Source: a virus
Taxonomy: Duplodnaviria; Caudoviricetes
Reading direction: 5' to 3' (one strand)
Length of the DNA stretch: 64,000 nucleotides
Virus record (IMG/VR): IMGVR_UViG_3300021255_002539
Coordinates: 288,001 to 352,000 of that record
Below the pieces are notes generated by a model. That model worked only from the letters and a program-made list of their open reading frames with translations, was not told where the DNA came from and made no database searches. Positions within the stretch are counted from its first letter, which is position 1. Every line of letters starts with the position of its first letter. A program made the translations under genes and the position numbers. Shown here piece by piece: positions 10,031 to 62,325 of this stretch.

Positions 10031-13000
10031 TCAGAAATCGCCCAAATCGACAGCATCAGAATCTTGCATCTTCACCGTGTTGTCTGGGGCCATGGATGGC
10101 GCGTTCTGAATCACCATTGCGCTTCCTACTGGTATCTTGTTCACTTCCTCCACATACTCCTAGAGGTTTCCATGTAGTCCGACTGCCGTCTCCTTGACCT
10201 CGGTGAATGTCTTCTCTGAAATCTTGTCTCCACGTATCAAGGCCAGCTTCAACTCCCGTTCCTCCCTGGGCAGTTTTGCGATTCTGTTCTCTGCCTCTTG
10301 CTTGATGTTGTTCACATCGTCGCCCAGTGACTTCAAGTCCTCGTCAGTGACCTTCCCAGGATCCTCAATCAACTTGCCGAGTATAGTTTCGTAGTTCTGC
10401 TCCTGCTTTTTGATTGCCTCCGCCGCCTTGATCTTCGCTTCCGCTATTACCAATGCTTCCTTGCGCTTGGCTTCCTCCTTGAGTTTCCTCTCGCGTTCCT
10501 CCTTTGCCTTGCGCTCCTCCTCTGCTTTTCTTGCTGCCTCTTTTGCCTCCCTCTGGCGGCGTTCCTCCTCTAGCTCTGCCATCGTCTTTGGTGGTTCCAA
10601 TGGGGTGGCGTTGTCGGCAATCTGACCAGGTTTCTTGACAATCGACTGACCTTGCATCTGCGAGGATATTCGCTTCTTGCGCTCGTCTCCGAACGCCACC
10701 CACACCTTCTTGAGTTGGTCCAGGTATCTGATGTCGCCCGTGAACTTCGCCTCGTACTGTGCCTTTTGCATCAAGGGTTGCAGGAGGTCTATGTTCTTCT
10801 GCAGTTCGACATCTGTCATTTCAGACATCTTCCCCCACAGACCAAACCACGTCTTCAGTATGGTGTCCTTCTCCTTGTCGTTGGGAATTCCCAGGCTTTT
10901 TCTGTACTCATCGAGTTTCTTGCGTTGTTTAGAGTTCGCGTTCGAGTAGTCGATGAGCCTCAGTTCCATGTTCGGGAATCTGAGGTACTTCTTCATGAAT
11001 CCAAACAGAAGTGGGGGTCGGAACAGAATCAGGAGTTTGTTGATCGAATCGTCGAGTGCCTGTTTGGACTTCTTGTCCCTGTTCGTGATGAAGTTGCCCA
11101 GTGCGTCCTCCACCCTGTTCCACTGGGGGATTATCTTGAAGGAAATGTACTCCAGGAAGATTTGAGCGAAGGCCCTCTGGGATGGGAGGTCGTGGAACAT
11201 ATTCTTCCAATCGAACCCCCGTATGTTGACGAAGTTGAAGAAGTTCCATGCCAGGCTGGCCAGAGGGGTTGTCTGGATGTCGTCCCCAAAGTCCTTGTCG
11301 AATTTCTTGATTATCTTGTTCTTGACGAAGAACTCTATTATTGGGATGGCGACTTGGATGCTGTTGTGTATTTGGCCAGACGAGAACAGGTCCAGTACGC
11401 CTCCATCGAACATCAGGCTCCTGACATCGCCGTATCTTATCCCAAATGCGGTAATGTCCTTCACCTTCTGGAGGATCCGCATGGTCTCGTACATCCTCTT
11501 GGACTTCCTGGAGGCGGCCTTGGCCTTGTCCAGAATCCCATCCTCTGGCTTGGCGTCGTACTTGCTCAGGTTCTTGTCGTAGTTCAAGAACCGTTCGATG
11601 CCCGCCTGACCCTTCTGAACTGGCTTCTTGAATGCTGACGAGATTTTCGAGACGATGTTCTTGTTGATTTGAATGGAATCCTCGATGCCGAAGGCCAGTC
11701 CAAACTTGGTCTCAACCTGGGTGTTCGCGTTCTCAAGCGAGTTGTTTTCGTCGGTTATCTCGCCCTTTTGGAGTCTGGTGTAGAAGTCTGTGAACCTGTT
11801 CTTGAATATGACGTTCCGTTCAACATCGTACCCACCAACATCGTGGTCGGCCAGTGCAGAGTTCCATTGCTTCCATTGCACCGCATAGTCTGCTATGTCG
11901 AGTTCCTTGGACTTGGTTGGATCCCAGAAACTGGGCTTGCCCAGGTCCTTGCACACGTTTTCGTATATCTCCCTGATGGCCTTCGCCCTGGCCAGTTCGT
12001 ATAGAATTGGGTGCACAGATATCTTCGCCTTGTTCTGCATCCATGTGAATGGCAAGAACCCAGTTGATGTGGTCTCGGCCTCTGCTGGACTGCCGAAGTA
12101 TATGTCTGGGGTCTGGTGTATGGACTCGAATGGGTTCAGTGGTATTATCGTCCTCAAGTCGCTGGCCATCACCCGATATCCAGGGTTCCATCCACTCACT
12201 GGGTCGTACAACAGACCCTGGACATTCTTGAACCTCTGGGACTTGCTGAGTTCGGTTATGTAGATGTCGAGTGCTTGAATCTGTGGCTGGATCGTCTCGG
12301 CGATCTTCCTGGCCTTCAGTTCCTTCAACTTCCTGCCCCTCTCCCTGGCAGCCGCGAATGGGTTGTACAACAAGGGTTGGTTGGCCTTCCATTCGTCCAT
12401 GTGCTAGTCGAGTTCCTGGCTGATGGTTGTCATGTTGGCGTTCAACCTGGCCAGAAGGTCGTTTGTTCCCCTTTCCTTGAGCCTGTTCTCTGTCTCCTCC
12501 CTGGTCGTCTTCTCGTCTACGGCCTGCTCCTGAATCTCCTGCGCCTTGCTGAACGACTTGGAGTACCGCATGTCCACGCTTCGCATTATGGCTCCACGTG
12601 GGATTCCACCTTGGAGCGTGGACTTCGACTGACCCTTACCTGTCTATAGCCCTGGGATGTTCACCATCTGGTTCTTGAAGGTCTTCACGCCCCTGCCAGC
12701 CTTCTTCAGGGCAGCCATGTAGACATTTATCTGACCCTTGGAGTCAGCCATCATGTCCTGGACATTGTTCTGCATCGCCCTCTCTGCGTCTGCCTTCTTG
12801 TTGTTCCAGTGGAGCATCACTTGGGTCGAGATGAAGGTGATTATGGCTGGTATGAGCTTGACTATGAACGACAGTATTGGTCCGACCCCGGGGACAATGC
12901 TCAGAACCCAACCCAGAATCTTGGCCAGTACCCCACCAGCAGATTTCCTCACTACGCCAATCAACCATGCGCCAAACAGCTTCCTCATGGTGTTCCTGGT

Positions 13001-14683
13001 CTCTATTCCATCTCTGATGGCACCCTTCTTTCCGAACAACTTCTTCTTGATGCCCTTGAAGAACCCAGACAATCTGTCGATGAAGTTCCTCAGACCAACA
13101 GTGACGAAGTTGTATATCCCCAGACCAATTGACTTCAGTGTACTCCATCCAGGTATTGGAACCCCGAATATCGTCATCTATGAACCATCGTTCTTGGGCA
13201 TGTACGCCTATGACCACTTGTTCAGGGCGAATCTGGTCAGACCTATCAGAATCAACGCTCCCAGGGCGAACACCATGAACTTCCCAATGCCACCAAAGAA
13301 CATTCCAAGCAGGGCATTGGCCTTCGCCTTTGCCTTCAACATGAATATCTGCCTTTGGGTCTTCTTCAAGTTCTTGGCTATTTCAGACTCCCCCTTGTCG
13401 ATCTTCTTCATCTGCTGGCCCAACCCCTTTTGGATTGCGTTGTAGTTTGGGGAGAACGCATTCACGAACTTCTTGTTTTGCAGTGTCTTCTGGAGGTTGT
13501 TGTGTATCTTGCCCAATGTGGACACTACGCCAGCTCTGGTTATGGAACCACCTTCAGCCCCAGGTTCCCGAATCGCACTGGGCAATTGGGTGTCCTCTGT
13601 TGGGCCGTGTGGTTGACCCAATTGGTGTACATGTCCACATATTGGGCAAGTGCACAGACCATTTGACGCCTTTTTTGTTGGGGACACATCAATCTTCGAC
13701 TGCTTTTGATCCACCTCTGGAATCTTTGTCTTCTCCAGACCCTTGGATTCCTTCGCAAAGAGGGATATGTCGTTCTGGATTTCCTTCTCGTATTGCTTCT
13801 GTTCCTTCTCCAGTTCCCTCCATTGCTTCCCATCCTGTTCCACAACTTCTGGCTGTGTCTGATCAATTCCCCCAATTTGATTACTACCCTCGATTTCACT
13901 TACCAGTTTTCTGAGGTCAATCTGTTTTGGTGGCTTGTTGTCCTGTAACTTGACTTTCTGACCTTGTTGAATTGCCTTGTTCAACTGGTCTATGCTGGAC
14001 GAGATGCCCTGTTCAACGTCTCCAGACAAGTCCAGTGTCTTGAGCATGGACTCAATCTGGCTCAATCTCTCCAGTTTCCATTGCTCGTCCTCGTCAGCCA
14101 GATTCCCCAATGCGTCTACTGTGCCTTGACCCTGCTCGGTTAATGTCTTGTTGAGGTTGTCGATGTCCTGTTGCTGACCTTCCTTGGACTTCGCCCATTC
14201 CAGTTTCCTTCTCTCGTATTCCCTAGAGAGGTTCAGCCTAACCTGTAGAATGGCCGTCTGAAGTTCGTCCATGAAGTCCAGCACCACCTGCATTATGTCG
14301 CAGTTGTCTGGCGTGAGTGTCTTGAGGACGACTTGCTTTGTCGTCTGCGACACCATGGCGGAATCCACATTCTCTGGGGTGAGATTGGCTTGATTTGCCT
14401 TTATCACTTCTGAGATTTTGTCGACAGTCTTGGAGTCTTTGACTATGTTCAGAAACTTCTCGTCAAGCGACCGATAGATGGTCCTAGGCAAGTATTCAGA
14501 ATTTGCGCCCTATTGGGTCAATGCGCCCTGTGTAAAGTCGTCGAACAGCCTGCCGAGTCCATTGTAGATGTCCTGCATGTGCTTTGTGGAGGACACTGGC
14601 TCCACGCCACCAACAAACGAAGTGAAGTTCTTCGTTGCTGAATTGGCTACTGCCTACAGGTCTTGTGTTTTTGGCTAGGACAT
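10031..14683 (-). CDS. 1550-aa virion protein, tape-measure-like (TAG read-through, 8 internal TAG)
   Basis: Four code-11 ORFs (13208-14491, 12644-13177, 12404-12586, 10160-12400) share one frame and are separated only by TAG; helical, with central hydrophobic G-rich segments; GTAAATA upstream. Confidence 0.8.
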
Positions 14684-14708
14684 TATTTCACGGTTCTGTC
14701 ATTATCGG

Positions 14709-14718
14709 TATTTACCAT
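14709..14718 (-). promoter_or_regulatory. Late-type promoter ATGGTAAATA
   Basis: Recurrent motif resembling T4 TATAAATA, found upstream of structural genes. Confidence 0.7.
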
Positions 14719-14731
14719 TTCTGGGTAGGGG

Positions 14732-14766
14732 AAAACGAAAACGACCCCGAGGTTGAGGTCGTTTCG
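14732..14766 (-). terminator. Intrinsic terminator
   Basis: Stem AAACGACCTC/GGGGTCGTTT followed by a T-rich tail. Confidence 0.7.
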
Positions 14767-14794
14767 TCATGTTGTTCTGGATTCTGAATTGGGA

Positions 14795-15646
14795 TTATGG
14801 CAAGGTAGTTGCCTGTGGATGCATTGAGTCAATGGACACCCAGTTCTCTCCGAAGTTGTCGTTGTTCTCTTCGTCGTCCTCGTAAGGTTCGTCTGCCCTT
14901 GGAGTAGACACCCTCTTCTTTGGTTCAATATCCTTGAATGTATCTTCGTCGTCAGAATACAAATCCAATCGCTCATCGTCAGGTGTCAAAGGTTTTGCCT
15001 TTGGAATGGACACCCTCTTCTTTGGTTCAATATCCTTGAATGTATCTTCATCGTCAGAATACAAATCCAATCCTTCATCATATGGTTCGTTTGCCCTGGG
15101 GTCGAGTGACACCGTCTTGAATGTGCTTGGATCGTAGTGGAACTTGGCGCAAATCGCCTCAATCTTGTTCTGACCCAATTCTGCGTGCTGGAACACCTGT
15201 GCTGCCTTGATGTCGTCTGTCCACTCAAGCTCACCCTTGTTCAGACCTTCGTCGCTCTTCAAGTAGCCGTGCATGTCAAGGTCGTCGTCGTCTATGCGTA
15301 TCACGACTTCCTCGGAGATGTCGCCATCGTCAGCACTCTCCTGCTTCACCTCGTCGTTGTTCGTTGCCAACAACGCTCCATCAAGTTTCTTCGGATCCTT
15401 CTTGAGATTGTCAAGGGTTTTTTGGTCAACCCCCTTGTCAAGTAGGATTTTCTTCTTCTGGTCGTCCGTGAGTGAATCCGTTGAGATTTCAATGGTGTTT
15501 TCGCCATCTTCCTTCACTATGTCTGTCTTGTCGTCCTTTACCACATTGTCGTTAGCCTTTATTTCGGTGTTTACGATGCCCTTCTCAAGCATTTCCTTGT
15601 CAAGTGCCTCGTTCATCTTCACCAGTTTGTCAAAATACTTTCCCAT
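14795..15646 (-). CDS. Acidic late protein, possible internal head/scaffold protein
   Basis: ATGGTAAATA at 15677-15686; D/E-rich; MNEA/KQES motifs; internal duplication. Confidence 0.65.
   Translation of the reverse strand: MGKYFDKLVKMNEALDKEMLEKGIVNTEIKANDNVVKDDKTDIVKEDGENTIEISTDSLTDDQKKKILLDKGVDQKTLDNLKKDPKKLDGALLATNNDEVKQESADDGDISEEVVIRIDDDDLDMHGYLKSDEGLNKGELEWTDDIKAAQVFQHAELGQNKIEAICAKFHYDPSTFKTVSLDPRANEPYDEGLDLYSDDEDTFKDIEPKKRVSIPKAKPLTPDDERLDLYSDDEDTFKDIEPKKRVSTPRADEPYEDDEENNDNFGENWVSIDSMHPQATTLP
14907..15072. repeat. Direct repeat, two 64-nt copies (1 mismatch), period 102 nt
   Basis: Encodes LDLYSDDEDTFKDIEPKKRVS twice. Confidence 0.9.
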
Positions 15647-15691
15647 GTTATAACCTCTTTGGTTTAATTGTATTTGTATTTACCATTACAT

Positions 15692-16804
15692 TCATCGAAA
15701 TGGGGTCATTGCGTCGGCAACCACCTTGAACAACTTGTTCCTGGTGTCTGAATCCTGAAATTCCATCAGCCCTCTCGCCATCTTGCAGAACTCCCTGTCC
15801 GTCATTATGTCAATCAGAAAGTCAGTGGCATCTACATTGTGCAAGGTGCAGTCCAATTCAAACGACTCGAACACCCCATCTGCAGACTTCAACCAATCAT
15901 CCACCAACAGAGTCGACAACCCCTTTTTGTCCAGTTTCTCGTAATTCTCGTTCCAAATGCGGTCGATCTTCTCCTGATTGAACAACTTGTATGTCCCACC
16001 TGTTGCTGCCAACTTGTCTTGTTCGTTGCATAGTTGGTTCCAAGCCATCATCTTCACGCGGTTGGTGTATATTCCCCTTTCGTCTGCCAGGATGTGCTTG
16101 ATGAGCAATTGAGGTGGGTTTAATTCCCTCCCAGGTTTCCATGTCCCACGCAATCCAACGCCCATCTTGGTGAACTTGGACAGAAACTCGAAGTACTTGG
16201 AGAGGTTGCCTACCATGACGATGTGCTCTGCCTCTGACAACTCCTGGAAGAACTTGGGGTTCAGCATCTCGGGGAGGAACAACGAGTAGCTGAAGTCAAT
16301 CTGGTCCTTGTCCTTGGTGTCCATGAACTTCTGGATTCTGCCAACAATCATCTGCCTCAAGGTGATCTTCCTTTGCAGAACCAACATATCCTGATCCTTG
16401 ATGTTGTTGCCGAGCATCGTGAGGGGGTTGTTCAGCAGATCGAATCCCTGCATGCCGTGTTCTGTGAGGAAGTTGTCGTATTCGTCCTGCAATTGGGTAG
16501 ACCCACCATCCATCTGGTAGTTGAAGTACAGTCTGGTCACACGAGGCAGGGCAGGAAGGCAGTTGTAGAGCCTTTGCCTGAAGTCAGAACTGAATTGCTC
16601 CAGAACATCCAACTTGAACAACCAATAGGCGCAAGTGGAGAGCCTGACGGCATCGAACAGAATATCGTCGTCAACCAGGGCGCAGTTCAACTCAACCACA
16701 TCTGGTGTAGTCGTCTGTGGCATTATGATGGCATCCAAGTCCAAGGGACATTGAATATAGTCCCTTGGATTCGGTGGTTTCTGTCTTTGACCTTTCTTTG
16801 CCAT
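15692..16804 (-). CDS. Hypothetical protein (about 370 aa)
   Basis: Long ORF with biased codon usage. Confidence 0.75.
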   Translation of the reverse strand: MAKKGQRQKPPNPRDYIQCPLDLDAIIMPQTTTPDVVELNCALVDDDILFDAVRLSTCAYWLFKLDVLEQFSSDFRQRLYNCLPALPRVTRLYFNYQMDGGSTQLQDEYDNFLTEHGMQGFDLLNNPLTMLGNNIKDQDMLVLQRKITLRQMIVGRIQKFMDTKDKDQIDFSYSLFLPEMLNPKFFQELSEAEHIVMVGNLSKYFEFLSKFTKMGVGLRGTWKPGRELNPPQLLIKHILADERGIYTNRVKMMAWNQLCNEQDKLAATGGTYKLFNQEKIDRIWNENYEKLDKKGLSTLLVDDWLKSADGVFESFELDCTLHNVDATDFLIDIMTDREFCKMARGLMEFQDSDTRNKLFKVVADAMTPFR

Positions 16805-16859
16805 TTGCCACATATATTGTACAACAAATGGTAAATACAGGAAAGGAAAGCGAGAAAAC

Positions 16860-19199
16860 ATGGTACATAGAGTCGGAACACAGGAAACAGAGGAACAAGA
16901 GGATCCAAAGAAGAAGAAGGGTGGTGGTCCTTGCAGTTCGGCGTCGCAGAATGGGGATGCATCTCAGGATTCGGCGGAGTATCCATCTGGTGGAGACCCC
17001 GAGCAGGACTTGGGCGAGGTCGGGATGGACGATGTTGACGCCTCTGTCAACTCGATGTGCAAGAAAACCTATACAGTCTACCGAGCAATACACAAGGACT
17101 ACAACTGCCCATCAGCCAGAAGGGACAACGTGGCCGACCAGTTCACTCCCCAAGACGACCTGCTCGTAATGGAGAAGACCGTAAGGGACTTCCTGAAGTT
17201 GGAGGGCAAGGTATACGACCCACAGACCACCAACCCCAGGTTCTTCGCCCCAGAGGGATGGGTGCAGAACTACGAGAAGGACAAGAATGTGGTATTGGCA
17301 GCGCTGGACCAGTTCAAGGCCAACATCATCAGAATGGAACACCTCTACACGGTGGCAGACAACAATTCCTACTCGAAACTGCTGTCCATACCCAACCAGG
17401 ACTGCAAGGAGTCCTTTCAGACGAACATCTGGTGGACATCCAGGGCGTTGAAGGATTGGGCGAACAACTGGTTCATCAAGCGCAACGCATACTCCAACAC
17501 GAAACTGTACGACCAGGACTATTGGGTTCCTGGGATGACTGGGCAGATGATTCAGTGGATGAACATTGGATCGTACAACGAGTTCAACATGGACGCAATC
17601 TCGAACGAGACGATGCTCAGAAAGGTCGATCTCCTGGAGGGCGTGATTGACAGGCTCATGAACAAGACGGCTGTGCAGGAGACAATCTCCAACTACGTCA
17701 ACCTCAAGGAGGCGATAGAGTCCACGGCAGATCAGAACAAGGAGAAGATCTTCACGACAAAGGTGATAGACTCCCAAATGGGCAAGAAGTTGGGCGTGAC
17801 TGACACAGGGGTGGAGAACCAGAAGGTTGAGGGCACGACCTACATAGCACCGAAGGAAGATTCAGTGGAGGACTACACCCTGCAGTGCAAATTGAGTTGC
17901 GTCAAGAACTTGTTCAAGGAGTTCAGGGAGAAGTCGACCGAGACTATGGATGCCTGCAGGTGCGTGTCCCCAACTGGACCTGGCCCATATCCACAGATTT
18001 GGACGAACATAGATGTCCTGGCTGCCCCAGTGTACACAGATCTGGACATAATGAACGAACTCGTGATGGATGTCTACAACGACAGCGAGAACCCAGGGAA
18101 GCATTGCTCAGTGACACACCAACCATTGGATTCTCAGGAACTCATGACCAGAATAGCATCCTTCAAGTGCATCATACAGGATGGCGTGATAGACATCATG
18201 ACGAACCAAGCCCTGTTGCCGAAGAAGGGCAAGAACATCCTCGACTCCATGTTCAACCAACTGTGGGAATATGGCGAAAAGGGACCGACAGTCGATTTGC
18301 CAGACTGGTGCAAGCAAGCCATAGAGAGCATCAATGGGTTCGAGAGGACGATGATGGACGCATGGAGCGAAGTGTACGACTGTTGGGAGAGGGAGTTCAT
18401 CACCCGCCTGTGGAGCATAGAGGTCGACCACCACACATCAAATTGGGAGAGGACGCAGACGAGATCGGTGAGAACAATACACAACCACGTGCATCCATAT
18501 GTCCCCTTGACCATGATGACACTGGCCTCGATTGGGGGAGACACCAGAAACCTGGACACGACCCCACTGAAGGGCGTGATGAGCTGCCCTGGGCACTTGG
18601 AGAGGTTGATGAAGCCAGTGTGCATCCAATACAGGGTGTTCAATGTGGCGCATCTGGCCAGGAACTTCAGGACAGACGTCAAGGCACTTTGCCAATGGAT
18701 GGTGTCTGCCATAGAAGCTATTGGCATCAAGCAAGCAGCAATATCGGCAGTGATGTCCGACCCAACCTTGAATGGTGACTGTGGGAACTGTGGCTGCCAT
18801 GGCCCACTCGGCCAGATAAACAAGCTCAGGGAGAAGAACAACAAGCTGCTTGAGAAGGTGGAGAAGGCCTATGGCATCTACTCTGATGTCAACAACATGA
18901 AGAACAAGAAGGAGTACGACGAGGAAATTGCCCTCCACGAACTGCAACCCAACAAGTTCAGCAACGAGGATCAGTTGAACATGTCGTCCAGCGTCCAATC
19001 TGAATCCAACGAGACTGGACTGGACTCAGAATTGTGCCAAGGTGGGATAGACATAGAGCAATTGAGGCCATGGAACCACCTGGAATTGTCAGAGAACAAG
19101 ATCAACCCAGTTCCACTTCCAGTTGAGCCAGCATGCAACAAGTTCGACAAGATAATCCAGACTGTCGCTGGCTTCGAGACCTTCTTCAACAAGGGGTGA
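16860..19199 (+). CDS. 779-aa late protein of unknown function (probable virion protein)
   Basis: ATGGTAAATA at 16828-16837; long ORF, Cys-rich patches. Confidence 0.75.
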   Translation: MVHRVGTQETEEQEDPKKKKGGGPCSSASQNGDASQDSAEYPSGGDPEQDLGEVGMDDVDASVNSMCKKTYTVYRAIHKDYNCPSARRDNVADQFTPQDDLLVMEKTVRDFLKLEGKVYDPQTTNPRFFAPEGWVQNYEKDKNVVLAALDQFKANIIRMEHLYTVADNNSYSKLLSIPNQDCKESFQTNIWWTSRALKDWANNWFIKRNAYSNTKLYDQDYWVPGMTGQMIQWMNIGSYNEFNMDAISNETMLRKVDLLEGVIDRLMNKTAVQETISNYVNLKEAIESTADQNKEKIFTTKVIDSQMGKKLGVTDTGVENQKVEGTTYIAPKEDSVEDYTLQCKLSCVKNLFKEFREKSTETMDACRCVSPTGPGPYPQIWTNIDVLAAPVYTDLDIMNELVMDVYNDSENPGKHCSVTHQPLDSQELMTRIASFKCIIQDGVIDIMTNQALLPKKGKNILDSMFNQLWEYGEKGPTVDLPDWCKQAIESINGFERTMMDAWSEVYDCWEREFITRLWSIEVDHHTSNWERTQTRSVRTIHNHVHPYVPLTMMTLASIGGDTRNLDTTPLKGVMSCPGHLERLMKPVCIQYRVFNVAHLARNFRTDVKALCQWMVSAIEAIGIKQAAISAVMSDPTLNGDCGNCGCHGPLGQINKLREKNNKLLEKVEKAYGIYSDVNNMKNKKEYDEEIALHELQPNKFSNEDQLNMSSSVQSESNETGLDSELCQGGIDIEQLRPWNHLELSENKINPVPLPVEPACNKFDKIIQTVAGFETFFNKG

Positions 19200-40441: not shown

Positions 40442-40467
40442 TGTAGTTTCCTCTCGTGTAATGTTAT

Positions 40468-41217
40468 TTACCATGTTTGTCCATATCTGTCTATGAAGTC
40501 CTGTCTTGCCTGCCTTTGCATTTCGAGTCTTTGCTTGTCCTCCTCGGATTCCACCGCTGGCGCATTCATCTGCTGCTCCAACCCGCTCTTGTCCAATATG
40601 ACGAAGTGGGTATATGCGCATGTGAACGAGTGTTGTATCTCGTCAGTTTCAGAATACGACAATTGCAAATCAGAGAACGCCTTGATCCAGCAGTTCTTGA
40701 ACCTGAACGCCACTATGGGCTTCTTGTAGGGCGATAGCAAGGTAACATCAATGTCGCACACATGTGTCAAACCATTGGCATCCACATTGCCAGTGTCCAG
40801 CGCATTCGCACCCTTGTTCACAGGGGCGTTGTTCATGCACCAGTTGTACAAGGCCCTGTAATCCGTCCAATCCGAGCGGATGAAGTAGTTGAAGGTGATT
40901 TCCTTGCTTCCAGGTGACATTGTATATGTTGGTCTCTCTATTTCGATTCCACGATAGGACACCTTGTCAGTTCCCATCTCTATTGATGGGATTGTGAAGG
41001 TCGAAAGACGGAGGTTCACATTCTAATAATCGGGGCCTAAAACAAGATATAACGGAACATCTGCTATCCACTTGTTTTTAGCGGCGAACGTGTTCTAATC
41101 CGATACTCCATCAGAGGCTGGAACATTTACACCCGGATATACCAACTACTAGTTCCTGTTGAGGTTCCTAGTCTAGTTTGGGTGTTGGAAGTGATTTACA
41201 TTACTTGGTACTGCCAT
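40468..41217 (-). CDS. Tail tube / tail completion protein (gp19/gp3-like), 249 aa (TAG read-through, 5 TAG)
   Basis: FTIPSI.MG..P..ITF.Y..DW..Y..LYNW..F.NCW..L.Y..F.Y pattern; GGAGGTG SD before ATG 41217. Confidence 0.75.
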
Positions 41218-41419: not shown

Positions 41420-41450
41420 TATTTACCATCAGTGCGACGAAATGGTAAAT
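41420..41450. promoter_or_regulatory. Back-to-back divergent late-type promoters
   Basis: TATTTACCAT-N12-ATGGTAAAT inverted arrangement. Confidence 0.65.
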
Positions 41451-43417: not shown

Positions 43418-44019
43418 CTTTTTGCTTCCTCGTTTTTCCAAATTGCTATTACAGGGGCTTCTTCTTCCTCCACATCGTCGTCAAGGACAATCTCGAATTG
43501 TCCATGCATGTTGTTCTTGTCGATGTATTCGTCAGATATCCTGGGGTCTTCGTACTTGAATATCTAGCCGAATTTGTCCACCAAGAAACCCACAACCTCG
43601 TCGTAGAACAAAATTGCAGAATCGCACTTCTCATCGTAGTCTGGGTCATACTTGTCGAAGTCGAACCAACATATGATTTGGTCGTCATGCAAGGTGATGT
43701 TGGTCTTGATGAAGTTGTCGCTGAACAACTGGCCATTGTATTCCCTTGCCACTGCGTGGTATATTTCGTCCAATGTGGGTTCTTTTGATGTGATGTACGA
43801 ATCAAGCATCTTCTTTACAACATCTGGGTTGAATTGGCACCAATCCTCGAAGTCCCTCAATTTCTTGTCCTGTGGGTATTTGCTGAGGTATGTCGCCTCC
43901 AGGTCGTCGAAGAACGCATCTGGGTCTATTGTCTACCCTTTGTACACCAGAAGTTCCCTGGAATCGTCGAATGTGACTCCTGGGATGCCATAGAAGCCGT
44001 CTTGTTGTAGTTTGTCCAT
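43414..44019 (-). CDS. 201-aa late protein (TAG read-through, 2 TAG)
   Basis: Joined ORF ends in an ATGA overlap with the next gene; GTAAATA at 44028-44034. Confidence 0.75.
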
Positions 44020-44045
44020 GATAACATTATTTACAAAAAACGCTA

Positions 44046-45882: not shown

Positions 45883-47400
45883 ATGGCTATTACGACGACA
45901 ACAGACAACAAATCTACATTCTTCAAGGAGGAGCTGTCAGACAAGACCCTGGAGTTGATGCTGTTCCGGGAGATGGTGCTCAATTCTGACTTCATGGACA
46001 AGATCTCCAATGTAGTCGACTTCAGGTGGTTCAGAACACCATGCATCCAGTTCATGGCGAAGTTCGCAGTAGGCTACTTCAAGAAGAATGGCATATTGGT
46101 GACCCGGGACATAATGGAGTCCGTAATCCAGAGGGTCAACGAGAACCAAGCGATTGCTGCGAACAAGATTGACCTGAACGCCGCCATGTTCGACTTCAAC
46201 AAGGCAACAACGCTGAACCTGGGAGAGATGTCCGACAAGGACAGAATGGCGAAGATCCAGGAGTATGTGAAGCAGGAGGCGATGAGGAACGCCCTTCTGG
46301 ATTCCGCAACCGACCTGGAGCGCAAGAACACAGATGGATTGGTGGAGAACACGCTGAAGAAGTTCGACGACATCCAGAAGTTGGTTTTCGAGGAACTGGA
46401 CTTTGGAGTTGAGATGTCATCGGATGAAGTTGACAATTCCCTTGAAGACCACATCGACTTCCTCACGAATCCATCTGCGAGGATTCCGACTCTTTGGAAT
46501 TGCCTGGACGACGTGACGCATGGTGGCTTCTTCAAGGATGGCAAGTTCCTGGGTGTGTTCATGGCTCAGGCTGGACTGGGCAAGTCGAACATCTTGGCGA
46601 ACCTAGGGTACAACTTCCTCAAGCAGAACCTCAAGGTTGTGGTGATCTCGATGGAAATGAGCCAGAATGTGTATCTGCGCCGATTCGACTCCCTCATCTC
46701 CAAGATCGACATCGACGATTTGGGGTTGTCCAGCATGGTTGGTCAGTTGAAGGACAAGGTAGAGAGGTTCTACAAGCAAGACTACCCAGGGGCGAGGCTC
46801 AACATCAAGGAATTTCCACCAAACAGCAAGTCAGCGAAGAGCTTGGGGCAGTATGTGGAGAAATTGGTGGTCGCGAAGGGTTGGAAGCCGGATGTCCTCA
46901 TAGTGGACTACCTCAACCTGCTCAAGCCGAATGCTGGTTCCTCCCATGGCGATTCCACGATGTACGAAGATGGCAAGGCGGTGTCCGAGGAACTGCGCAA
47001 GTTGTCGTATGACTTGTCCATTCCCATAATAACTGCGGTCCAGTGCAACTCCAGTGGCTTCAACACCGCCGACATTGGAATGCAGAACATAGCAGAATCC
47101 AGGGGAATCGCCCACACCGCCGACTTCATAGCTGGACTCTACCAAACCGAGGACGAGCAGGAGCAAGGGGTGTTCCACATGAAGATATTGAAGTCCAGAC
47201 TGGGCGAGAGCAAGAACCTCAAGTTCGAGTTCAACAAGCGCACGATGGAGTTCACCGACATCAACGATGTTGACGATGGGATGGAAGCTGTGAAGGAAAG
47301 CGTTGATCAGGGCAAGAAACCGACAACCAATTCACTGACCCCTGTCAGATGCGAAGTCGACGACAAGGATCTGTTCATGGGAGACTTGGGGATGCCGTAA
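45883..47400 (+). CDS. Replicative DnaB-like helicase (gp41-like)
   Basis: AQAGLGKS, ISMEMS, IVDYLNL, TAVQ.N, AES.GI..TAD, KSR.G. Confidence 0.95.
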   Translation: MAITTTTDNKSTFFKEELSDKTLELMLFREMVLNSDFMDKISNVVDFRWFRTPCIQFMAKFAVGYFKKNGILVTRDIMESVIQRVNENQAIAANKIDLNAAMFDFNKATTLNLGEMSDKDRMAKIQEYVKQEAMRNALLDSATDLERKNTDGLVENTLKKFDDIQKLVFEELDFGVEMSSDEVDNSLEDHIDFLTNPSARIPTLWNCLDDVTHGGFFKDGKFLGVFMAQAGLGKSNILANLGYNFLKQNLKVVVISMEMSQNVYLRRFDSLISKIDIDDLGLSSMVGQLKDKVERFYKQDYPGARLNIKEFPPNSKSAKSLGQYVEKLVVAKGWKPDVLIVDYLNLLKPNAGSSHGDSTMYEDGKAVSEELRKLSYDLSIPIITAVQCNSSGFNTADIGMQNIAESRGIAHTADFIAGLYQTEDEQEQGVFHMKILKSRLGESKNLKFEFNKRTMEFTDINDVDDGMEAVKESVDQGKKPTTNSLTPVRCEVDDKDLFMGDLGMP

Positions 47401-49225
47401 CTGGCATGGATGCCGTAAGCAATTCCTGCTCATCTTCGGTTATTTCCTTGCACTCCCAGATGTACACCTCTATGTGTGGTGGTATGTTGTCGTGTGGAAT
47501 CGTGACCGTGTGCGTATTCGACGATTCTGGGTACTCCAATGGGGACATCTGGTAGTTTACCTTCACATTCTTCACAGTGTTGGTTTCTGAGTACTCGTTC
47601 AGGGTTCCAATTGGGGTGGTCTTCACATTGACTACTGCGGCCTGTTTCCCACTGATGCCCCCTTGCAGCCAATCTTGACCTTGTGTAGTGGACTTTTCCT
47701 CCAACGTCTCGTCGTGTGTGTGGATTGGAACATTGGATTCGCGCAGACACACATATTCCTCCCCGAATCTCCTGCCCAACTTCGCGGCCTCGTCCACTCC
47801 CCGGAGGAAGTTCTCTATTCTTCTCCACCGCTTGCCACCATAGTGGTTGATTACCTTTTGCTCTATGTCGTCTGTGGTGGATATGACGACCCTCCCAACA
47901 TATGTCAATGGCCTCACAGACACGAGCAACTACCGAACCAAATCGATCTTCCCACCAATAACCTTGATTTGCTCCATCATCTTGTGGCAGCGGACATTGA
48001 ATTCCTGTCTTGATTCGAGCAGTACATCCAGGAATGGGGTCAGAATCTCGGAAATGGATCTTCCATCCTCCCCCTTGAGTTCCCTACCAGCAACATCTGT
48101 GAATATGTCCAAAAGCTGACCAACCCCCTGCCGCATCATCTTGATGTCATCCTCAATCGAATCTTCCTCAATCTGCAACCGAAGCAGACAATCGGATGGT
48201 GTAAGGTTCTCCACTTGGTATTTCACCAGTCCATTTACGGTGCTCGACTGGTATTGGGCCTCCACCATCGAATCCTTCTTGACCTTCAGTGGTTGCCCAA
48301 CAACATCCCTGCTTGATGAGGATTCCTGTTTGATGGTGGTATATGGGAATGTCACTGCCTGTCGTCCGATGGATGTATTGTTGCTGCTTTCCATGTACTT
48401 GACATATACATTCAGGCAGGGAGGTACATTGTTGTGCCTCTTGTTGGGGGTTCTCCAGTCCAGGATGTTCTGACCATAGAGTGGGAACGTGAGTTGGTCA
48501 GTTGTGGAAGAATTGCATTTGATTGGGTGAACCCGAACCCCCTTTGGAGAACCCCTGTTGTCGTCTTGGGAGACCAATTGGTAGTTCCCCTATGCGAATA
48601 TGCCCAGAACATCGCCACCCAGTTTGTTTCTGGAAATTGGCACGGTAAGGGTTTCTGCCTTCGTATTTGGGTGGTCATGACTGGGAACCTGCCCGACAAT
48701 GGATTCCTCAAAGTCGCTCTGGGGTAGTTCTGCTCCAAATGTCTGACACCATATCTGACCAAGTGCCTTTTTGAAGTTTTCGTATTTCACCAAATCAGGA
48801 ATGGCCGATTCCTTGATGGATTGGATTTCGGTGGCACCAGAGTAGTTCAAGACACCCTTCCTTCTCAATTTCAGAATGTCGTTGTCCAGTCGTTCCTCCA
48901 ATTGGTCGAGTCTAGTCTATAGGTCCGAAATGAAATCCTCTGCAACCGATCTTCTAGCATATTGGGTGAATTGCCCAGCAAGATCCTTTGGCTTCACTCC
49001 TGTTGGATCCAAGTAGGGATGTCCCTGCTAGTCGAACTTCACCAGTTGTCCGAATATGGTCTGGTAGAACTCGTTGAACATCTGCCATTGGGTGACTGCG
49101 ATGTATCCACGAGGCTCTTCCTGCATGGGGAAGAACAAGAAGCAATCGTTGTCGTTGCTGGACAGCGAAAGGTCCAGTACGGAAATCGGATTTACTCTGA
49201 GGTATTCTCTTACATCTATGTTCAT
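47375..49225 (-). CDS. 616-aa baseplate/fibre-like protein with two Gp10-C-like modules (TAG read-through, 4 TAG)
   Basis: Four code-11 ORFs in one frame joined by TAG; HNNVPPCLNVY and HDNIPPHIEVYIW motifs, GG.W.R..FL.G, P.H.H; GTAAATA at 49234-49240. Confidence 0.75.
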
Positions 49226-49236
49226 TGTAGATGTAT

Positions 49237-49581
49237 TTACAATCGAGTGCGTCGTTTTCCCTTCATCTTCTTGATCGGAATGGATTTCTTGAACGATGAG
49301 TTCTTCAGGTTGTACAGAACTGAATAGACCTCATCGAGTGCGGGGTTCATCAGAACATTGAAGTCGGCCAGCAGGTTCATCAGGTTCTGGTCGCAACCAC
49401 CTTGGGTTTCTGGGTTGTTCAATCCGGCCTCAAGAATCGCCTCCTTGGTCTTGGTTGCCTCCTTCGACAGCTTCTGCAACTTGCTGCGCATATCCTTGAA
49501 CCTCCAATAGAAGTCCACCACAGACTTCTTGAACTTGGAGAACCTGTCCTTTACGCGCTTAGCGTCTGGCTCCCGTTTCAT
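49237..49581 (-). CDS. Hypothetical coiled-coil protein
   Basis: ATGA overlap in an operon. Confidence 0.6.
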   Translation of the reverse strand: MKREPDAKRVKDRFSKFKKSVVDFYWRFKDMRSKLQKLSKEATKTKEAILEAGLNNPETQGGCDQNLMNLLADFNVLMNPALDEVYSVLYNLKNSSFKKSIPIKKMKGKRRTRL

Positions 49582-52367: not shown

Positions 52368-52419
52368 TTATGTTGGAAAAAGGTAAATAATATATCCAAC
52401 AAATGGAGGATACATAGAC

Positions 52420-53244
52420 ATGATTACGATTAACAAATTGGTGACAACTAGATTTGACATGACAACTGGAGGGGGGGAATTAAATAACCCACTGTGCTTT
52501 ACGGCGGTAGATGCTGGTGCTACGATAGCATTCAACAAAGTCGGCAGTCCAGATGCGGCAAGCATCGTGACTTCTACAGATGGACAGAATTGGATAGATT
52601 ATACATTTAATGATGTTATCACTCTTGTCAATGTAGGCGACAAGGTGTATTTCAGAGCAACTGACGAGAACGACATCTCGTTCTACAAAGATGGCAGCAA
52701 CTACTACAGATTTGCTACGACAGATGGAAAGAAGATAGCGGCAAGTGGAAATATCTAGACATTGATGAAGGCAGATGGTTCAAGATTGGACATATCTGGA
52801 AAGGACAGTTGCTATTTCAACATGTTCTACAAATGCACATCCTTGACATCCGCTCCAAGTTTGCAGGCAACAACACTTGCTAATCATTGCTACTAGAGCA
52901 TGTTCTATGGTTGCACATCCTTGATGACGACTCCTGCCCTGCCAGCAACGACTCTTACTGAATACTGTTACGGCAGCATGTTCTAGGGCTGCACATCTTT
53001 GACAACAGCTCCAAGCTTGCCAGCAACGACCCTCGCCAGCGGCTGCTACTTAAATATGTTCCGAGATTGTAGCAATCTCGCTACAATAGATGTCAGCTTT
53101 ACTGCATGGAACCCGACAAACGCAACATCGAGCTGGGTGTATCGCGTTGCAGCATCTGGCACATTCACTTGCCCAGCAGATTTGCCAACGGAGACGACTG
53201 GAAGGAACAACATCCCATCTGGTTGGACTATAGTAGAGAAATGA
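52420..53244 (+). CDS. BspA-like leucine-rich-repeat protein, 274 aa (TAG read-through, 3 TAG)
   Basis: ASGNI-Q-TL, CY-Q-SMFYGCTSL, CYGSMF-Q-GCTSLTTAPSLPATTLA; GGTAAATA at 52382. Confidence 0.88.
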
Positions 53245-55670: not shown

Positions 55671-56855
55671 TTACCGATATCGCCCAATTACCTGCAATCT
55701 GAATTGGTTCTTGCACGGCACTCCTACATTGTACTTCTTGAGGGAGTTGAAGTGGGTGTGGATGGGCAGGACTATTGTGAAGCCAGACGCGCTTTTGTTC
55801 ATGAGCATTGGCATCGACACAATGGCGTCGTAGGTTGGCTCCACCTTGTTCTCCAGATCTGTCTTGTCGTACCCAAACACGAACTGCCCTGGCTCGTATG
55901 TGTCGAAGAACACCATGTACTCGTCGTTGGCGAAGTCCTCGTCGAACACAATCTGCTTGAAGAAGATGTTGGTGCCATACCTCAAGTTGTTGAACTGCTG
56001 CACTGGTGGGTCCTCCCAATCGTCAACCTCCCACACATCCCTCATCAAGTCCTCGTTCAGAAGGACTGGGAACAGATTCTGGTTCTCGATGTACTTCTGA
56101 GAGAATATGGTCTGGTCTGACTCGTCCCACACCGGCGACTTCATCCTGAAGTACCTTCTGTCGGCAATCTTGACCTGTTGGTTCGCCTTTTCGTCGAATC
56201 CATACTTGATGCTCATCTCCATTATGCCATTGGTGGACTTCCTGATCTCGCCATATGCCGTTTCCTTGACCTCGTTCACCAATGTGTGCTTCTTGCTCTC
56301 AATCCTCCATGGGGTCTGCAGGTTCGAGTAGTCCTTCCTCAGCAAGTTGCTCTCAATCTCGTTCGCCCCAATCAAGCCATGATCCTCAGCAACATGCTCG
56401 TCCAGAAGCCCCTTGAACACATCCACCACGACATCCCTGAGCCCATTCAAGTCCTGAAGCAAGTACGACATCGGATTCAGAAGAACCCAATTCGTCTTGC
56501 TGAAGTCTGGTATGCCATCCACCATGTCGTATCCTGGCATCGCGTTGTTCAGTTGCTCGGATGTGGACATCAACAGGAACACGAACTCCCTCTTGCCTTG
56601 CTCCACAGTGTTCTGGTTGTCTTGCTTGAAGTACAGAACCACATCCCCCTTGTTGTACGATACAGTGGAATCCCACATCGTTATCGCCTTCCCAATCGAA
56701 TCTACCCCAATCCTCTTCTTCACATCATCGGTGAGGCACTGCATCTATTTCAAAACCCTGTGTATCCCCTGTATGGTCAAGGGTTCGTTGGGGGAGAGGA
56801 ACTACACATCTTGTATCCTCTGCTTGAACCAGCTATAGTCAATCTTCGTTGCCAT
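55671..56855 (-). CDS. 394-aa probable virion protein (TAG read-through, 2 TAG)
   Basis: Extends upstream through two TAGs to ATG 56855, which overlaps the previous gene; WD..SY..GDVV module. Confidence 0.7.
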
Positions 56856-57264: not shown

Positions 57265-57334
57265 ATCTTAATTATATGTATTTACCATTTCCATCCAATG
57301 TTGTATAATATAATGGCAAGGAAAGGCTAAAAAC

Positions 57335-58429: not shown

Positions 58430-58430
58430 A

Positions 58431-59567
58431 TCAATAAGGCGTATAGTCGTCTGTCCCTTCTGGGTTCTCGGCTTGCAGTTCTTCCTCGGTTGGTGCTATG
58501 TTCTCGTCAACATCCACCCAAGGCCTGGTTTCGATTGGCTAATAAGGTAGACCCCATTGATTCATGTAGTTTTGGGATTGTATCAACTGCGTCATGTGAT
58601 CTGGCGTAATCTCAACTTCTTGGTCATACAACCTATGCCTTGGACTCACCCATGTCAATCCGTCTCCGGCCTCTGGCTTGTATCCAAATGGCTTGTTTAT
58701 CCAATCTGGGGCCTCTAGTTCCCCTGTGTCTGGGTTCTTCTGGTAGTCTATGATCCAATCCAACATCTCGTATTCTGGATATGGAATCTGCCCATTGTCG
58801 AGCTTGTCCATGTAGTTCTCTATGGACATCTGATGCTGCTCAATCTCTGATGGCTGGTCGATTCTCCCCGTGTTGTTCTTTGGCACATTGTCCTGGTCTG
58901 GCTCCAGATATGGAACAGCGTGGATTTCCGCCGATACCTTCGTGATTGGCGCGATGAATGGATTGGTGAGACCGAGTTCACCTTGCTCAGTTCCCCCGAA
59001 TATGTGCGTCTTGTAGGTGAAGTTCAAGGTTGCTGTGTGTATCTCGTCAGTGTCCTTGGATATGTCTGGCGAGGACTCTATGTTTATGTCAGGGGACATC
59101 ACGACCTGGGATGTGTACTTGACGTTTCGGTACTTCGGGTGTCTGCTCGACACATAGACATCAGTGTTGAAGAATGGCATAATCTGCCCCAGCATCATGT
59201 CTATGTCCGACAACCATCGAGAGGCCAATACCACCGTGTACTGGATGTCTATTGGGCATGGCGTGTAGAGGTTGTAGTTTACGCGGCCTTCCTGTTCCTG
59301 GTTCTTGATTTCGTTGTGGAGGTTGGTTATCCTGGCAGTCGCTATGGACAACCCAGTCCTCTGGACAGTAATCAATGGAAGCGTCAACCCCTCCTTCTCC
59401 AAGTTCTTGAATATGCGGTTTCTGTCGGCCAGAACTACTGGAACATCTATTGTAACACGGGTCTTGTTCTCGTCGTCCTATGACCTCGTTATCCTGAAGT
59501 TCCTGAACAACCCCGAGAACAGGATGTTCGCCAATTTCAATTCGTTGTTGAAGTTTCTTATCTACAT
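58431..59567 (-). CDS. Tail sheath stabilizer/terminator (gp15-like), 378 aa (TAG read-through, 3 TAG, one at codon 2)
   Basis: F..LF.N..I.R..I.VP..LP.I..P.P..I.Y..QI.PFF; the recoded ORF ends 2 nt from the guaC stop; ATGGTAAATA at 59586-59595. Confidence 0.8.
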
Positions 59568-59588
59568 GGAATATACCTCAATTGGTAT

Positions 59589-59885
59589 TTACCATGTTCC
59601 ATCGTAGAAATATCTGTCATAGTCCCAAACTGGGCAAGGTGGCGACCCCACAATGGTGTAGTCCTTGTAGTTTGCACATATGTCGAGTCCCCTTTGCCTC
59701 ATTGCGTCAAGTAGGATGCCGAAATCAGCATCTTCCTCCAAATAGGCATAGTCACCGTCCATAAATGAGAACTCGCTTATCTTATCGGCTATTCCCAAGG
59801 CAACCAAATCCTTTTTTGGAACTCTCATCCATCCATGGCTTGGATCTTCGTAGAAGCAATAGTCTTCGGATTGTTTGAACTTCAT
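59589..59885 (-). CDS. Conserved small phage protein (DP.HGW..V / YLEED family)
   Basis: Motifs; class II promoter TTTACA-N17-TATAAT at 59912-59940. Confidence 0.7.
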   Translation of the reverse strand: MKFKQSEDYCFYEDPSHGWMRVPKKDLVALGIADKISEFSFMDGDYAYLEEDADFGILLDAMRQRGLDICANYKDYTIVGSPPCPVWDYDRYFYDGTW

Positions 59886-61451: not shown

Positions 61452-61587
61452 GTTCAATACCCTTTTATTGGATGTGGTCAGAGGTTGGTTGGAGAACGGT
61501 CAATTCCAATCGACCTCGTTTGTTTTCATCTATAATTATACAGTTTTTTTGTAAATATACAATGTACCAAACAAAGGTGATTAAACT

Positions 61588-62325
61588 ATGAACAAGAAAC
61601 TTAGAGTAAAGCATCTCATAACAGAATCCGATATACATGATTATGACTTGGTGAAGGAATCCACAAAGGATGGTTCCACTATATTGAAGTTGGCTGGTCC
61701 ATTCGCGGTATGCGAGACCTTGAACAACAACAACCGTATGTATCACTTGGAGGAGATGGTTGAGGAATGCAAGAAGTTCCAGGAGGTAATAGACAACCAC
61801 CGCGCACTTGCTGAACTTGAGCATCCAGACGACATCAACATCAATCCAGACAGAGTTTGCGCCAGAATCACGAAGTTCTATCAGGATCCCCATGACGAAA
61901 AGACCTTCTTGGGCGAGGCTATCATAATGGGTGGTGATCCTGCACACGGCATTCCTGGAACGCCTTGTGGTCAAATCGTCTCGTCGCTGCTCCAGTATGG
62001 AACCAGGATGGGATTCTCCACCCGTGGTCTTGGAAATCCAGAGGAGGACATGGATGGCAACACATATGTTGGCGATTTCCAGCTGATCACGGCGGACCTC
62101 GTCTGCGACCCGTCAATTGGCAGATTCTGCGACGCCAAGTAGGAATCGAAGGCTGTTCATGGCATTCTGGAGTCGGTTGAATATCTAGTGGACTCCAATA
62201 GGCTGGTAGTTGAATCCAGGGTTGTTGACCAACTCAAGAAGGACTTGAAGGTTCTGCCAAACGATTCTGCCGAGAGGTACATGAAGATGAAGGGCGCAGT
62301 AGACAGGTTCTTGCGTGGGATTTAA
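61588..62325 (+). CDS. Prohead core protease (gp21-like), 245 aa (TAG read-through, 1 TAG)
   Basis: N.N.R.Y, ELEHP, TP.G, G.S.RG.G, D.V.DPS; read-through restores the conserved V.GILES.E C-terminal motif; GTAAATA at 61551-61557. Confidence 0.92.

Follow-up and report, generated by a model that had tools for sequence, protein, structure and literature searches.

Eleven genes in the window, a 64,000-nucleotide stretch of a complete, 414,060-bp phage genome (G000), are interrupted by in-frame TAG codons. The phage is T4-like, comes from the gut, has terminal repeats and a GC content of 48%, and carries the T4-type genes gp15, gp17, gp20, gp21 and gp23. Comparisons were made with three relatives, G001, G002 and G006, the latter two of which are also complete; GC content is 45–48% across the four genomes. 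The closest cultured phages are only 34% (terminase) and 31% (capsid) identical, the best cultured terminase matches are enterobacterial phages (32–34% identity), and a host search based on NrdD returned mixed gut phyla. Counted in genome order, the 11 genes contain 8, 4, 1, 5, 1, 2, 4, 3, 2, 3 and 1 TAGs, which is exactly the 34 that the first-pass annotation had estimated. Their 5,087 codons include no in-frame TAA or TGA, while the other two frames hold 86 TAG, 77 TAA and 285 TGA. All 11 genes lie inside units headed by GTAAATA, again as claimed; this motif occurs at 14 sites in the window (2.0 +/- 1.6 expected), and late promoters of this type number 112 genome-wide, with 91 genes having one at most 250 nt upstream.

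The 1550-aa late gene (10031–14683, minus strand; GTAAATA at 14709–14715) has eight TAGs, at codons 3, 10, 58, 492, 502, 680, 760 and 1508. Its orthologs are 37–47% identical and have Gln at codons 3, 10 and 58 in all three relatives, while those of G002 and G006 carry different early TAGs, at codons 18 and 8, respectively. The tail-tube-like gene (40468–41217, minus strand; unit promoter 41420–41426; PHROG 45 tail tube, E 1e-15) has five TAGs in its first 65 codons, at 15, 23, 24, 41 and 65, and the corresponding ortholog positions are Gln or TAG in 14 of 15 cases. The gp15-like tail sheath stabilizer (58431–59567, minus strand; promoter 59586–59592; PHROG 227, E 2e-16) has TAG at codons 2, 30 and 343; each of the three relatives has CAA or CAG at codon 2, and in G006 the ortholog is TAG-free. 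In the gp21-like head maturation protease (61588–62325, plus strand; promoter 61551–61557; PHROG 207, E 7e-34), TAG codon 185 is CAG, CAG and CAA in the relatives. The early TAGs reported previously in three of these genes were placed correctly, and the family matches for tail tube, gp15 and gp21 bear out the proposal that read-through restores recognizable proteins.

The remaining interrupted genes on the minus strand are an AT-rich (38% GC) 406-aa late gene without a family match (36208–37428; four TAGs; promoter 37460–37466), a 216-aa gene (39791–40441; TAG at codon 143; promoter 40465–40471), a 558-aa gene (41741–43417; TAG at codon 495), a 201-aa gene (43414–44019; two TAGs; promoter 44028–44034), a 616-aa gene with a weak tail-protein match (47375–49225; four TAGs; promoter 49234–49240) and a 394-aa gene (55671–56855; TAG at codons 18 and 37; unit promoter 57279–57285). 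The BspA-type LRR gene (52420–53244, plus strand; promoter 52383–52389) has TAG at three of its five Gln codons and a below-cut-off LRR_5 score of 19 bits. Orthologs were found for nine of the 11 genes, and one or more of the relatives have Gln or TAG at 19 of the 26 TAG sites that could be aligned. The other two genes, 36208–37428 and the LRR gene, lack counterparts in the three relatives, and the case for reading them through is made by frame and promoter, to which the LRR gene adds its weak LRR_5 match.

TAG had been described as confined to late genes. All 11 genes are indeed late, but several late genes in the window are TAG-free, such as a 779-aa gene (16860–19199, plus strand; promoter 16831–16837) with 38 Gln codons and no TAG, a counter-example to a general lock. 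Early genes had been said to lack internal TAGs, and the exception in the window, 6658–6660, proved to be a true stop: it ends an early-class gene at codon 294 (6658–7539, minus strand), where the G001 and G002 orthologs also end, and the next in-frame gene downstream (6382–6603) has its own ATG and is a separate 78-aa gene in G006. A gp55-like gene outside the window, described below, does contain two. With TAG read through, genes are contiguous and full length, and coding density is 88.3% compared with 84.5%, a gain of 3.8 points obtained with our own gene caller; it lies below the threshold of Borges et al., which applies to Prodigal calls on contigs >100 kb and requires code 15 to raise coding density by over 5% (bioRxiv 10.1101/2021.08.26.457843). 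For many of the large late genes PHROG gave no match, and no endolysin, holin or spanin was identified among the proteins scanned.

In orthologs from the three relatives, the residues aligned to TAG were Q 75, E 32, D 15 and K 14 of 204, and the likelihood favored Gln, as first proposed, over Glu (lnL -469 versus -633). In late units, 9.2% of the codons for Gln are TAG, compared with 1.2% in sigma70-like units (P 3e-28), with classes assigned by motifs and our own gene caller and some structural genes, including two baseplate hub genes, misplaced in the early class; the trend is repeated in the three relatives. Judged from these alignments, TAG is Gln in the late genes of this phage, and such recoding of late genes is already published (Borges, Devoto, Peters). 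Another residue, namely Glu arising by mischarging without transamidation, or an ambiguous meaning, is very improbable, even though Glu is the second most common partner and U1:A72 tRNAs pass through Glu-tRNA in GatCAB-using hosts (PMC2811023). The likelihood led us to reject Glu, whose share among non-Gln partners is not different from that at CAA/CAG sites (P 0.2), and relatives have CAG or CAA at conserved sites, among them codon 185 of gp21 and codons 49 and 76 of the portal gene. Sequencing errors, pseudogene stops or a host that constitutively reads TAG as Gln are scarcely credible and already largely refuted: the frames are interrupted by TAG only, the pattern recurs in three independently assembled relatives and essential genes (terminase, portal, gp21) are hit. 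Moreover, early genes shun TAG and sometimes end with it, which a recoded host would not require; that some early genes still terminate at TAG is compatible with a host that uses the standard code and with recoding being switched on as infection proceeds.

Immediately downstream of the 1550-aa gene lies a tRNA gene with anticodon CUA (9902–9980, minus strand), the predicted suppressor. It has a Gln-type acceptor (U1:A72, G2:C71, G73), an encoded CCA and a 7-nt anticodon loop containing CUA, and both its MFE and centroid structures are cloverleaves. These acceptor, cloverleaf and CCA features are shared with bacterial tRNA-Gln, but the canonical elbow (G18 G19 and a TPsiC loop) is not. Instead of the usual GG and TPsiC, the elbow is swapped, with CC in the D-loop and an 8-nt T-loop, GUGGCAAA, which carries GG; the two loops are complementary over 4 nt. 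Neither ARAGORN (normal or relaxed) nor Rfam RF00005 detected this tRNA, and a pattern requiring a TTC-type T-loop missed it too; the reading that the phage has no suppressor was considered and dropped. With our own scanner, it is the only standard-size CUA cloverleaf in the genome; a loose DNA pattern returned chance matches only, and stricter ones returned no or one further copy. The G001 homolog keeps CUA and, in this comparison of two sequences only, shows four two-sided changes, one of them in the proposed D-loop/T-loop pairing. Folding z-scores do not set either CUA RNA apart (-1.3 and -0.9), so that support comes from shape and covariation.

The tRNA is preceded by a sigma70-like -10 box, TCG-TATAAT (10012–10017, minus strand), a putative promoter, and this motif also precedes the CUA tRNAs of G001 and G006. 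It is followed by a TAG-free gene for the peptidyl-tRNA hydrolase Pth2 (9258–9848, minus strand; PF01981, 36.8 bits, cut-off 23). Each of the three relatives has its Pth2 ortholog some 2 kb away from the CUA tRNA. The two are neighbors in four of four genomes, though the tRNA bodies are of three different kinds. A stand-alone, TAG-free YqeY gene (8306–8758, minus strand; PF09424, 96.8 bits) is present in G000 and G001, which have the swapped-elbow tRNA, and absent from the complete G002 and G006, which have a normal T-loop. YqeY is therefore a candidate helper for the swapped-elbow tRNA; we found no report of it with a phage suppressor, which, given incomplete coverage of the literature, is weak evidence of novelty. 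No GlnRS/GluRS core was found in the phage, and this, together with U1:A72 and G73, suggests charging by the host Gln route. Release-factor domains were likewise missing (no PF00472 in G000, no PF03462 in the four genomes).

In T4, which uses the standard code, late transcription depends on gp55 and a TATAAATA promoter. The phage resembles T4 in having a gp55 homolog and an octamer late promoter before structural genes; it differs in the consensus, [TG]GTAAATA, and in a 34-residue N-terminal extension of gp55 that bears TAG. The gp55-like gene lies behind a sigma70-like promoter and has two internal TAGs in G000. Its identity is supported by PHROG 234 (E 3e-17) and by the T4 gp55 chain of PDB 7d7c (E 1.6e-5), to which it matches from residue 35 on, so that the TAGs precede the T4-homologous part. 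All 10 lineages compared (70–89% identity; four are database proteins chosen as full-length or truncated) have TAG within codons 24–33 at shifting positions, and those without TAG at codon 24 all have it at 25, 26 or 30. Within the extension, TAG accounts for 21 of 43 Gln codons, about half and five times the rate of late genes, as against 3 of 63 elsewhere in the gene (P 1e-7). Between lineages, the extension retains 53% of its TAGs, compared with 13% for late genes overall. Of 141 early-class three-way orthologs, only gp55 is internally interrupted by TAG in each of the three complete genomes, and the rule that sigma70-promoter genes lack internal TAGs would exclude this best-conserved TAG, in an early-class regulator.

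Other properties of the extension bear on how its TAGs might act. In G000, there is no ATG, GTG or TTG between gp55 codons 27 and 51; in some relatives, TTG or GTG soon after the TAGs could permit re-initiation. Fourfold sites are more conserved in the extension (0.65–0.69) than in the rest of the gene (0.40–0.47), and with the shared ancestry of the lineages this means that part of the TAG retention may reflect a constraint at the RNA level. Under generous neutral rates, five unbiased relatives would all retain a TAG with a probability of 0.007–0.05, which is supportive and not decisive. The literature searched contained no recoded late sigma factor, again weak evidence of novelty in view of incomplete coverage.

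These observations suggest a model, with a probability of roughly 0.6, in which synthesis of gp55 depends on the suppressor, the start of late transcription depends in turn on gp55, and the majority of late TAGs are drift that is tolerated. As the CUA tRNA, Pth2 and YqeY are TAG-free behind a sigma70-like promoter, host machinery could make them first, and the host Gln-charging route would then load the tRNA. The gp55 mRNA would also come from its sigma70-like promoter, but the extension TAGs would halt the product as a 23–25-residue peptide until the suppressor sufficed. Thereafter gp55, by analogy with T4 and from the promoter motif, would start transcription at [TG]GTAAATA. Late mRNAs would exist only once suppression is on, so that TAG could be tolerated there and act like any rare, non-optimal codon for Gln, whereas early genes would purge it or go on using it to terminate; there may be secondary gates in terminase and portal. 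Recoding would thus probably act as a single-point switch for the late program rather than as a lock on each virion gene. For the ruminant-gut T4-like jumbo clade, it is an even bet that the code switch is a checkpoint on transcription, that selection keeps the gp55 extension as an amber gate, that late transcription waits for a phage suppressor tRNA (in this phage one with a rebuilt elbow, possibly served by YqeY), and that structural TAGs are mostly a by-product.

The translational lock on virion assembly put forward in the first-pass annotation held as to Gln, late enrichment and a suppressor tRNA; support for it did not extend across the structural genes, as about half of the late genes are TAG-free. 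A distributed version, in which TAGs in many structural genes are each under selection to cut short the translation of leaky late transcripts while the suppressor is still building up, seems improbable. The eight-fold enrichment in late units speaks for it, and such locks are published for the lysis cassettes of crAss-like and Agate phages. In contrast, TAG-bearing late genes number 61 of 116, below the 73 expected (95% range 64–81; counts overdispersed), and the major capsid gene has no TAG among 23, 18 and 20 Gln codons in the three complete genomes. The TAG share falls from 15.9% to 5.9% as codon adaptation rises. A 1.4–2.7-fold 5' excess of TAG would also suit a lock, but was rejected as evidence because the rare Leu codons CTA and TTA show an equal excess. 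TAG sites turn over; TAG-to-TAG retention is 15%, relative to background no higher than for the rare codon CTA, and the early TAG sites listed beforehand are mostly CAA/CAG in relatives (gp15 codon 2, and 1550-aa codons 3, 10 and 58, in all three). Nevertheless, the terminase, portal, 1550-aa and 2402-aa genes keep a TAG in their first 40 codons in all three complete genomes (four observed versus 1.2 expected among 88 late orthologs), making a partial lock possible.

It is also conceivable, though we consider it doubtful, that there is no regulation at all: the suppressor would serve another purpose, such as disturbing host termination or defence genes, TAG would drift into late-translated genes including gp55, and the gp55 cluster would be ancestral and RNA-constrained. 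TAG does behave as a rare codon at tolerant sites, where Gln conservation is 37% versus 52% at CAA/CAG sites, and the late-gene TAG/CAG ratio is 0.17 compared with 1.44 for TTG/CTG; the raised synonymous conservation of the extension points the same way. Drift does not readily account for the five-fold excess of TAG in the extension, for the substitute TAGs of lineages lacking the one at codon 24, or for the fact that no other early-class gene behaves like gp55.

To date, the debate on whether phage stop-codon recoding is regulatory or tolerated has drawn only on enrichment by gene class. The present clade supplies one small testable element, namely two or three codons near the start of gp55; should late timing shift when they are altered, then recoding is regulatory, and the structural-gene enrichment is explained without gene-by-gene selection. 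Less usual than recoding itself are the TAG-marked gp55 and the swapped-elbow suppressor beside Pth2 and YqeY. To make a protein with 20 TAGs, read-through must reach about 90% at each site, and no phage release factor gene was found; natural suppressors working at this level are relevant to genetic-code engineering.

The code-15 gut phages of Borges et al. (473 genomes; bioRxiv 10.1101/2021.08.26.457843) share with this phage TAG aligned to Gln, recoded codons in dispersed structural modules, a suppressor tRNA and early genes in the standard code, and a timing role was proposed. There, lysis and tail genes are named as regulated targets and a sigma factor is mentioned 0 times, whereas here the target would be gp55; the recoding was also tied to low GC, a feature absent here. 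TAG suppressors were found in 40% of those genomes and non-canonical tRNAs were suspected, which is what this phage shows: the swapped elbow is a concrete example, and such tRNAs may be a reason why most recoded phages seem to lack a suppressor. Lak megaphages (Devoto et al., 10.1101/356790; Crisci et al., PMC8346664) are likewise very large gut phages with mainly structural TAG-to-Gln recoding, a CUA suppressor, Pth and Glu as second aligned residue, but are about 540–560 kb, mostly of about 26% GC and encode RF2, unlike the present phage of 414 kb and 48% GC without a release-factor domain. In crAss-like code-15 phages, a different group, proteomics validated TAG as Gln in structural and not early proteins (Peters et al., PMC9523058). 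Their recoded genes form one contiguous late block, whereas here they occupy dispersed late units with a T4-type promoter.

The 11 TAG-bearing late genes of the window contain exactly 34 in-frame TAGs, at the positions reported by the first-pass annotation. Together, these genes span 5,087 codons with no in-frame TAA or TGA, and their other two frames hold 86 TAG, 77 TAA and 285 TGA. GTAAATA occurs 14 times in the window versus 2 expected and, as had been proposed, each of the 11 genes lies in a unit headed by this motif.

The phage (G000) has a complete genome of 414,060 bp and 48% GC that bears direct terminal repeats; the window is its bases 288,001–352,000. Its head, tail and packaging genes are T4-type, and identity to the nearest cultured phages is at most 34% (terminase) and 31% (capsid protein). 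Close relatives came from goat and sheep gut sequencing runs. Three relatives with a mean protein identity of about 57–61% were recovered: G001 (202 kb, partial), G002 (434 kb, complete) and G006 (418 kb, complete). All four genomes are recoded, with 109–279 TAGs per genome in called genes. Coding density, which like the TAG counts comes from our own gene caller and not Prodigal, is 88.3% when read in code 15 versus 84.5% in the standard code. As the Borges screen for recoded genomes (10.1101/2021.08.26.457843) sets its threshold at 5%, above this rise, genomes of this kind could escape that screen. Across the whole genome, ~70% of genes terminate at TGA and TAG hardly ever serves as the stop, early units included; thus, at 48% GC, low GC is not needed here for the loss of TAG as a stop.

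Alignment to homologs bears out the proposed reading of TAG as Gln. Genome-wide, the residues opposite TAG in relatives (n=204) include Q 75, E 32, D 15 and K 14, and a substitution-profile fit at TAG sites gives an lnL of -469 for Gln versus -633 for Glu, the next best. Glu was rejected, as its lnL is worse and its share among non-Gln partners does not differ from that at CAA/CAG sites (P 0.2). In the window, Gln or TAG lies opposite 19 of 26 alignable TAG sites. Reassignment of TAG to Gln, its late-gene enrichment and the timing hypothesis are already published (10.1101/2021.08.26.457843; for Lak phages, 10.1101/356790 and PMC8346664), and in crAss-like phages the reassignment was validated by proteomics (PMC9523058). 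The late enrichment as first noted is therefore a known phenomenon in another phage.

The promoter class of a gene was taken from the nearest upstream motif. By these classes, which rest on motifs only and put a few structural genes wrongly among the early ones, TAG accounts for 9.2% of Gln codons (218 of 2,376) in [TG]GTAAATA units versus 1.2% (17 of 1,435) in sigma70-like units (P 3e-28). In the relatives, the shares are 7.0–8.1% and 0.8–2.7%, respectively. The genome-wide comparison thus supports the link between TAG density and promoter class, but strict confinement of TAG to late genes does not hold: codons 24 and 26 of the gene for a gp55 homolog, which is preceded by a TATAAT box, are TAG. 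Some early genes still end at TAG, including window 6658–7539 (-), where orthologs also end; in G006, what follows in frame is a gene of its own. We infer that such true stops fit a host using the standard code and a switch in the course of infection. The gene that follows this early gene shares its frame across the TAG stop (window 6382–7539, -), and late read-through would therefore fuse both proteins. In two further genes, one for a gp46-like SbcC nuclease (L217:17436-19364, -) and the other an early-class gene of 279 aa (L220:9907-10746, -), each of the three complete genomes has a TAG close to the C-terminal end, with 0–17 codons beyond it. Such conserved amber stops would acquire a short tail late in infection.

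In T4, late transcription requires gp55. The gp55 homolog lies outside the window at genome 79,305-79,961 (L217:2823-3479; PHROG 234, E 3e-17; T4 gp55 chain 7d7c). The match to 7d7c begins at residue 35, and both TAGs fall within an N-terminal extension absent from T4 gp55. Codons 27–51 contain no ATG, GTG or TTG as an alternative start. The TATAAT box is ~100 nt upstream, and no sense-strand late promoter was found before the gene. A TAG occurs within codons 24–33 in 10 of 10 lineages (70–89% identity), six of which were collected without regard to annotation, and its position shifts among them (24, 25, 26, 28, 30, 33, also 13). Across these lineages, the extension has 43 Gln codons, 21 of them TAG, and the remainder 63, 3 of them TAG (P 1e-7). 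Among 141 early-class three-way orthologs, gp55 alone contains an internal TAG in each of the complete genomes, and TAG retention is 53% in its extension versus 13% in late genes. The gp55 of a distant 291-kb T4-like phage has no internal stop. Between the -10 box and the start codon of gp55, 9 of 10 lineages have a late-promoter motif on the opposite strand (here L217 about 2750-2760, 62–72 nt upstream of the start), through which gp55 could repress its own transcription.

These patterns favor a model, to which we give a probability of roughly 0.6, in which a host-type promoter would yield the suppressor tRNA first. TAG read-through would then license gp55, which would start late transcription. 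From then on, TAG would be a tolerated, rare Gln codon in late genes, and early genes would purge it. The data show the meaning of the codon by homology, its late enrichment, the conservation patterns and the shape of the tRNA; we infer all timing, the charging of the tRNA and the gate function of gp55. That there is no regulation at all seems rather unlikely. A rough neutral calculation for TAG retention in the gp55 extension gives P 0.007–0.05. Here, 4-fold sites are more conserved than elsewhere and 2-fold sites are not.

The first-pass annotation had instead proposed a translational lock on virion assembly through the TAGs of late and structural genes. A lock on each structural gene is improbable and mostly not upheld. 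Internal TAGs are present in 61 of 116 late genes, where random placement predicts 73 (64–81), and counts per gene are overdispersed. In none of the three complete genomes does the major capsid gene carry a TAG among its Gln codons (23, 18 and 20). The TAG share is 15.9% in the lowest codon-adaptation tercile, 8.8% in the middle one and 5.9% in the highest (Spearman -0.37, P 0.001). At Gln-aligned sites, TAG is kept in a relative in 15% versus a background of 5–6%, and this retention is no greater than for the rare Leu codon CTA. The 5' bias was likewise discarded as evidence for a lock, as the excess of TAG (1.4–2.7 fold) is equaled by control CTA/TTA (1.4–2.3 fold). The TAGs at codon 2 of gp15 and codons 3, 10 and 58 of the 1550-aa gene (window 10031-14683, -) are CAA/CAG in all three relatives. 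Residual support for the lock comes from 4 of 88 late orthologs, large terminase and portal among them, in which every complete genome has a TAG by codon 40, versus 1.2 such orthologs expected. Late genes that lack an ortholog and show atypical codon usage reach the highest TAG shares (window 36208-37428, 52420-53244 and comparable genes elsewhere), suggesting that newly acquired genes gain TAG fast; in the LRR gene at 52420-53244, TAG is 3 of 5 Gln codons. Another late gene (L231:11874-13082, +) encodes a BspA-type LRR and a weak Hint/intein-like domain.

Standard tools, including ARAGORN, found no CUA tRNA in G000. However, window 9902-9980 folds into a cloverleaf with U1:A72, G2:C71, G73, CCA and the loop CU-CUA-AC. 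Its elbow is swapped: the D-loop carries CC and the T-loop GG, where GG and TPsiC are usual. In the G001 homolog, the CUA anticodon is retained and there are four two-sided changes, one within the proposed D-loop/T-loop pairing, in a comparison of two sequences only. In G002 and G006, different CUA tRNAs with normal T-loops and unrelated bodies (L159:6487-6576 and L147 about 1420-1500, both -) occupy the same locus upstream of Pth2; that of G002 has a long variable arm and A73. In a sheep-gut contig, exactly the CUA tRNA stretch is replaced. YqeY occurs together with the swapped-elbow tRNA in G000 and G001, and neither G002 nor G006 has it, a co-occurrence that is probably one evolutionary event. 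YqeY-like domains of GatB and Deinococcus GlnRS bind the tRNA-Gln D-loop (PMC2811023), and a role for YqeY with this tRNA is our guess. A domain search of phage proteins found no release factor or Gln/Glu synthetase domain, although a 3,880-aa protein with 20 TAGs requires ~90% read-through per site. Neither an amber-gated late sigma factor nor a swapped-elbow suppressor tRNA was found in the literature searched.

More than 30 tRNAs and a tmRNA (tag GNDYRMAA) cluster at L001 about 6800-16000 (genome 361.8–371 kb). Several of the tRNAs were missed by ARAGORN and show unusual T-loops, C33 or long insertions; they include Ser GCU/GGA, Gly GCC/UCC, Lys CUU and a CGU element whose insert is ~100 nt. 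The cluster also holds a second CUA-tipped tRNA-like RNA of ~153 nt (L001:12409-12561, genome 367,409-367,561, -), which has no Rfam or ARAGORN match. It combines an 8-bp acceptor, a large D-region insert, an 11-bp arm tipped CU-CUA-GA, a long variable arm and a 3-bp T-stem. Five sequences conserve this RNA, with 8 two-sided changes among them. A second suppressor, a decoy or another role are candidates for its function. Its loop, UCUAGA, is self-complementary.
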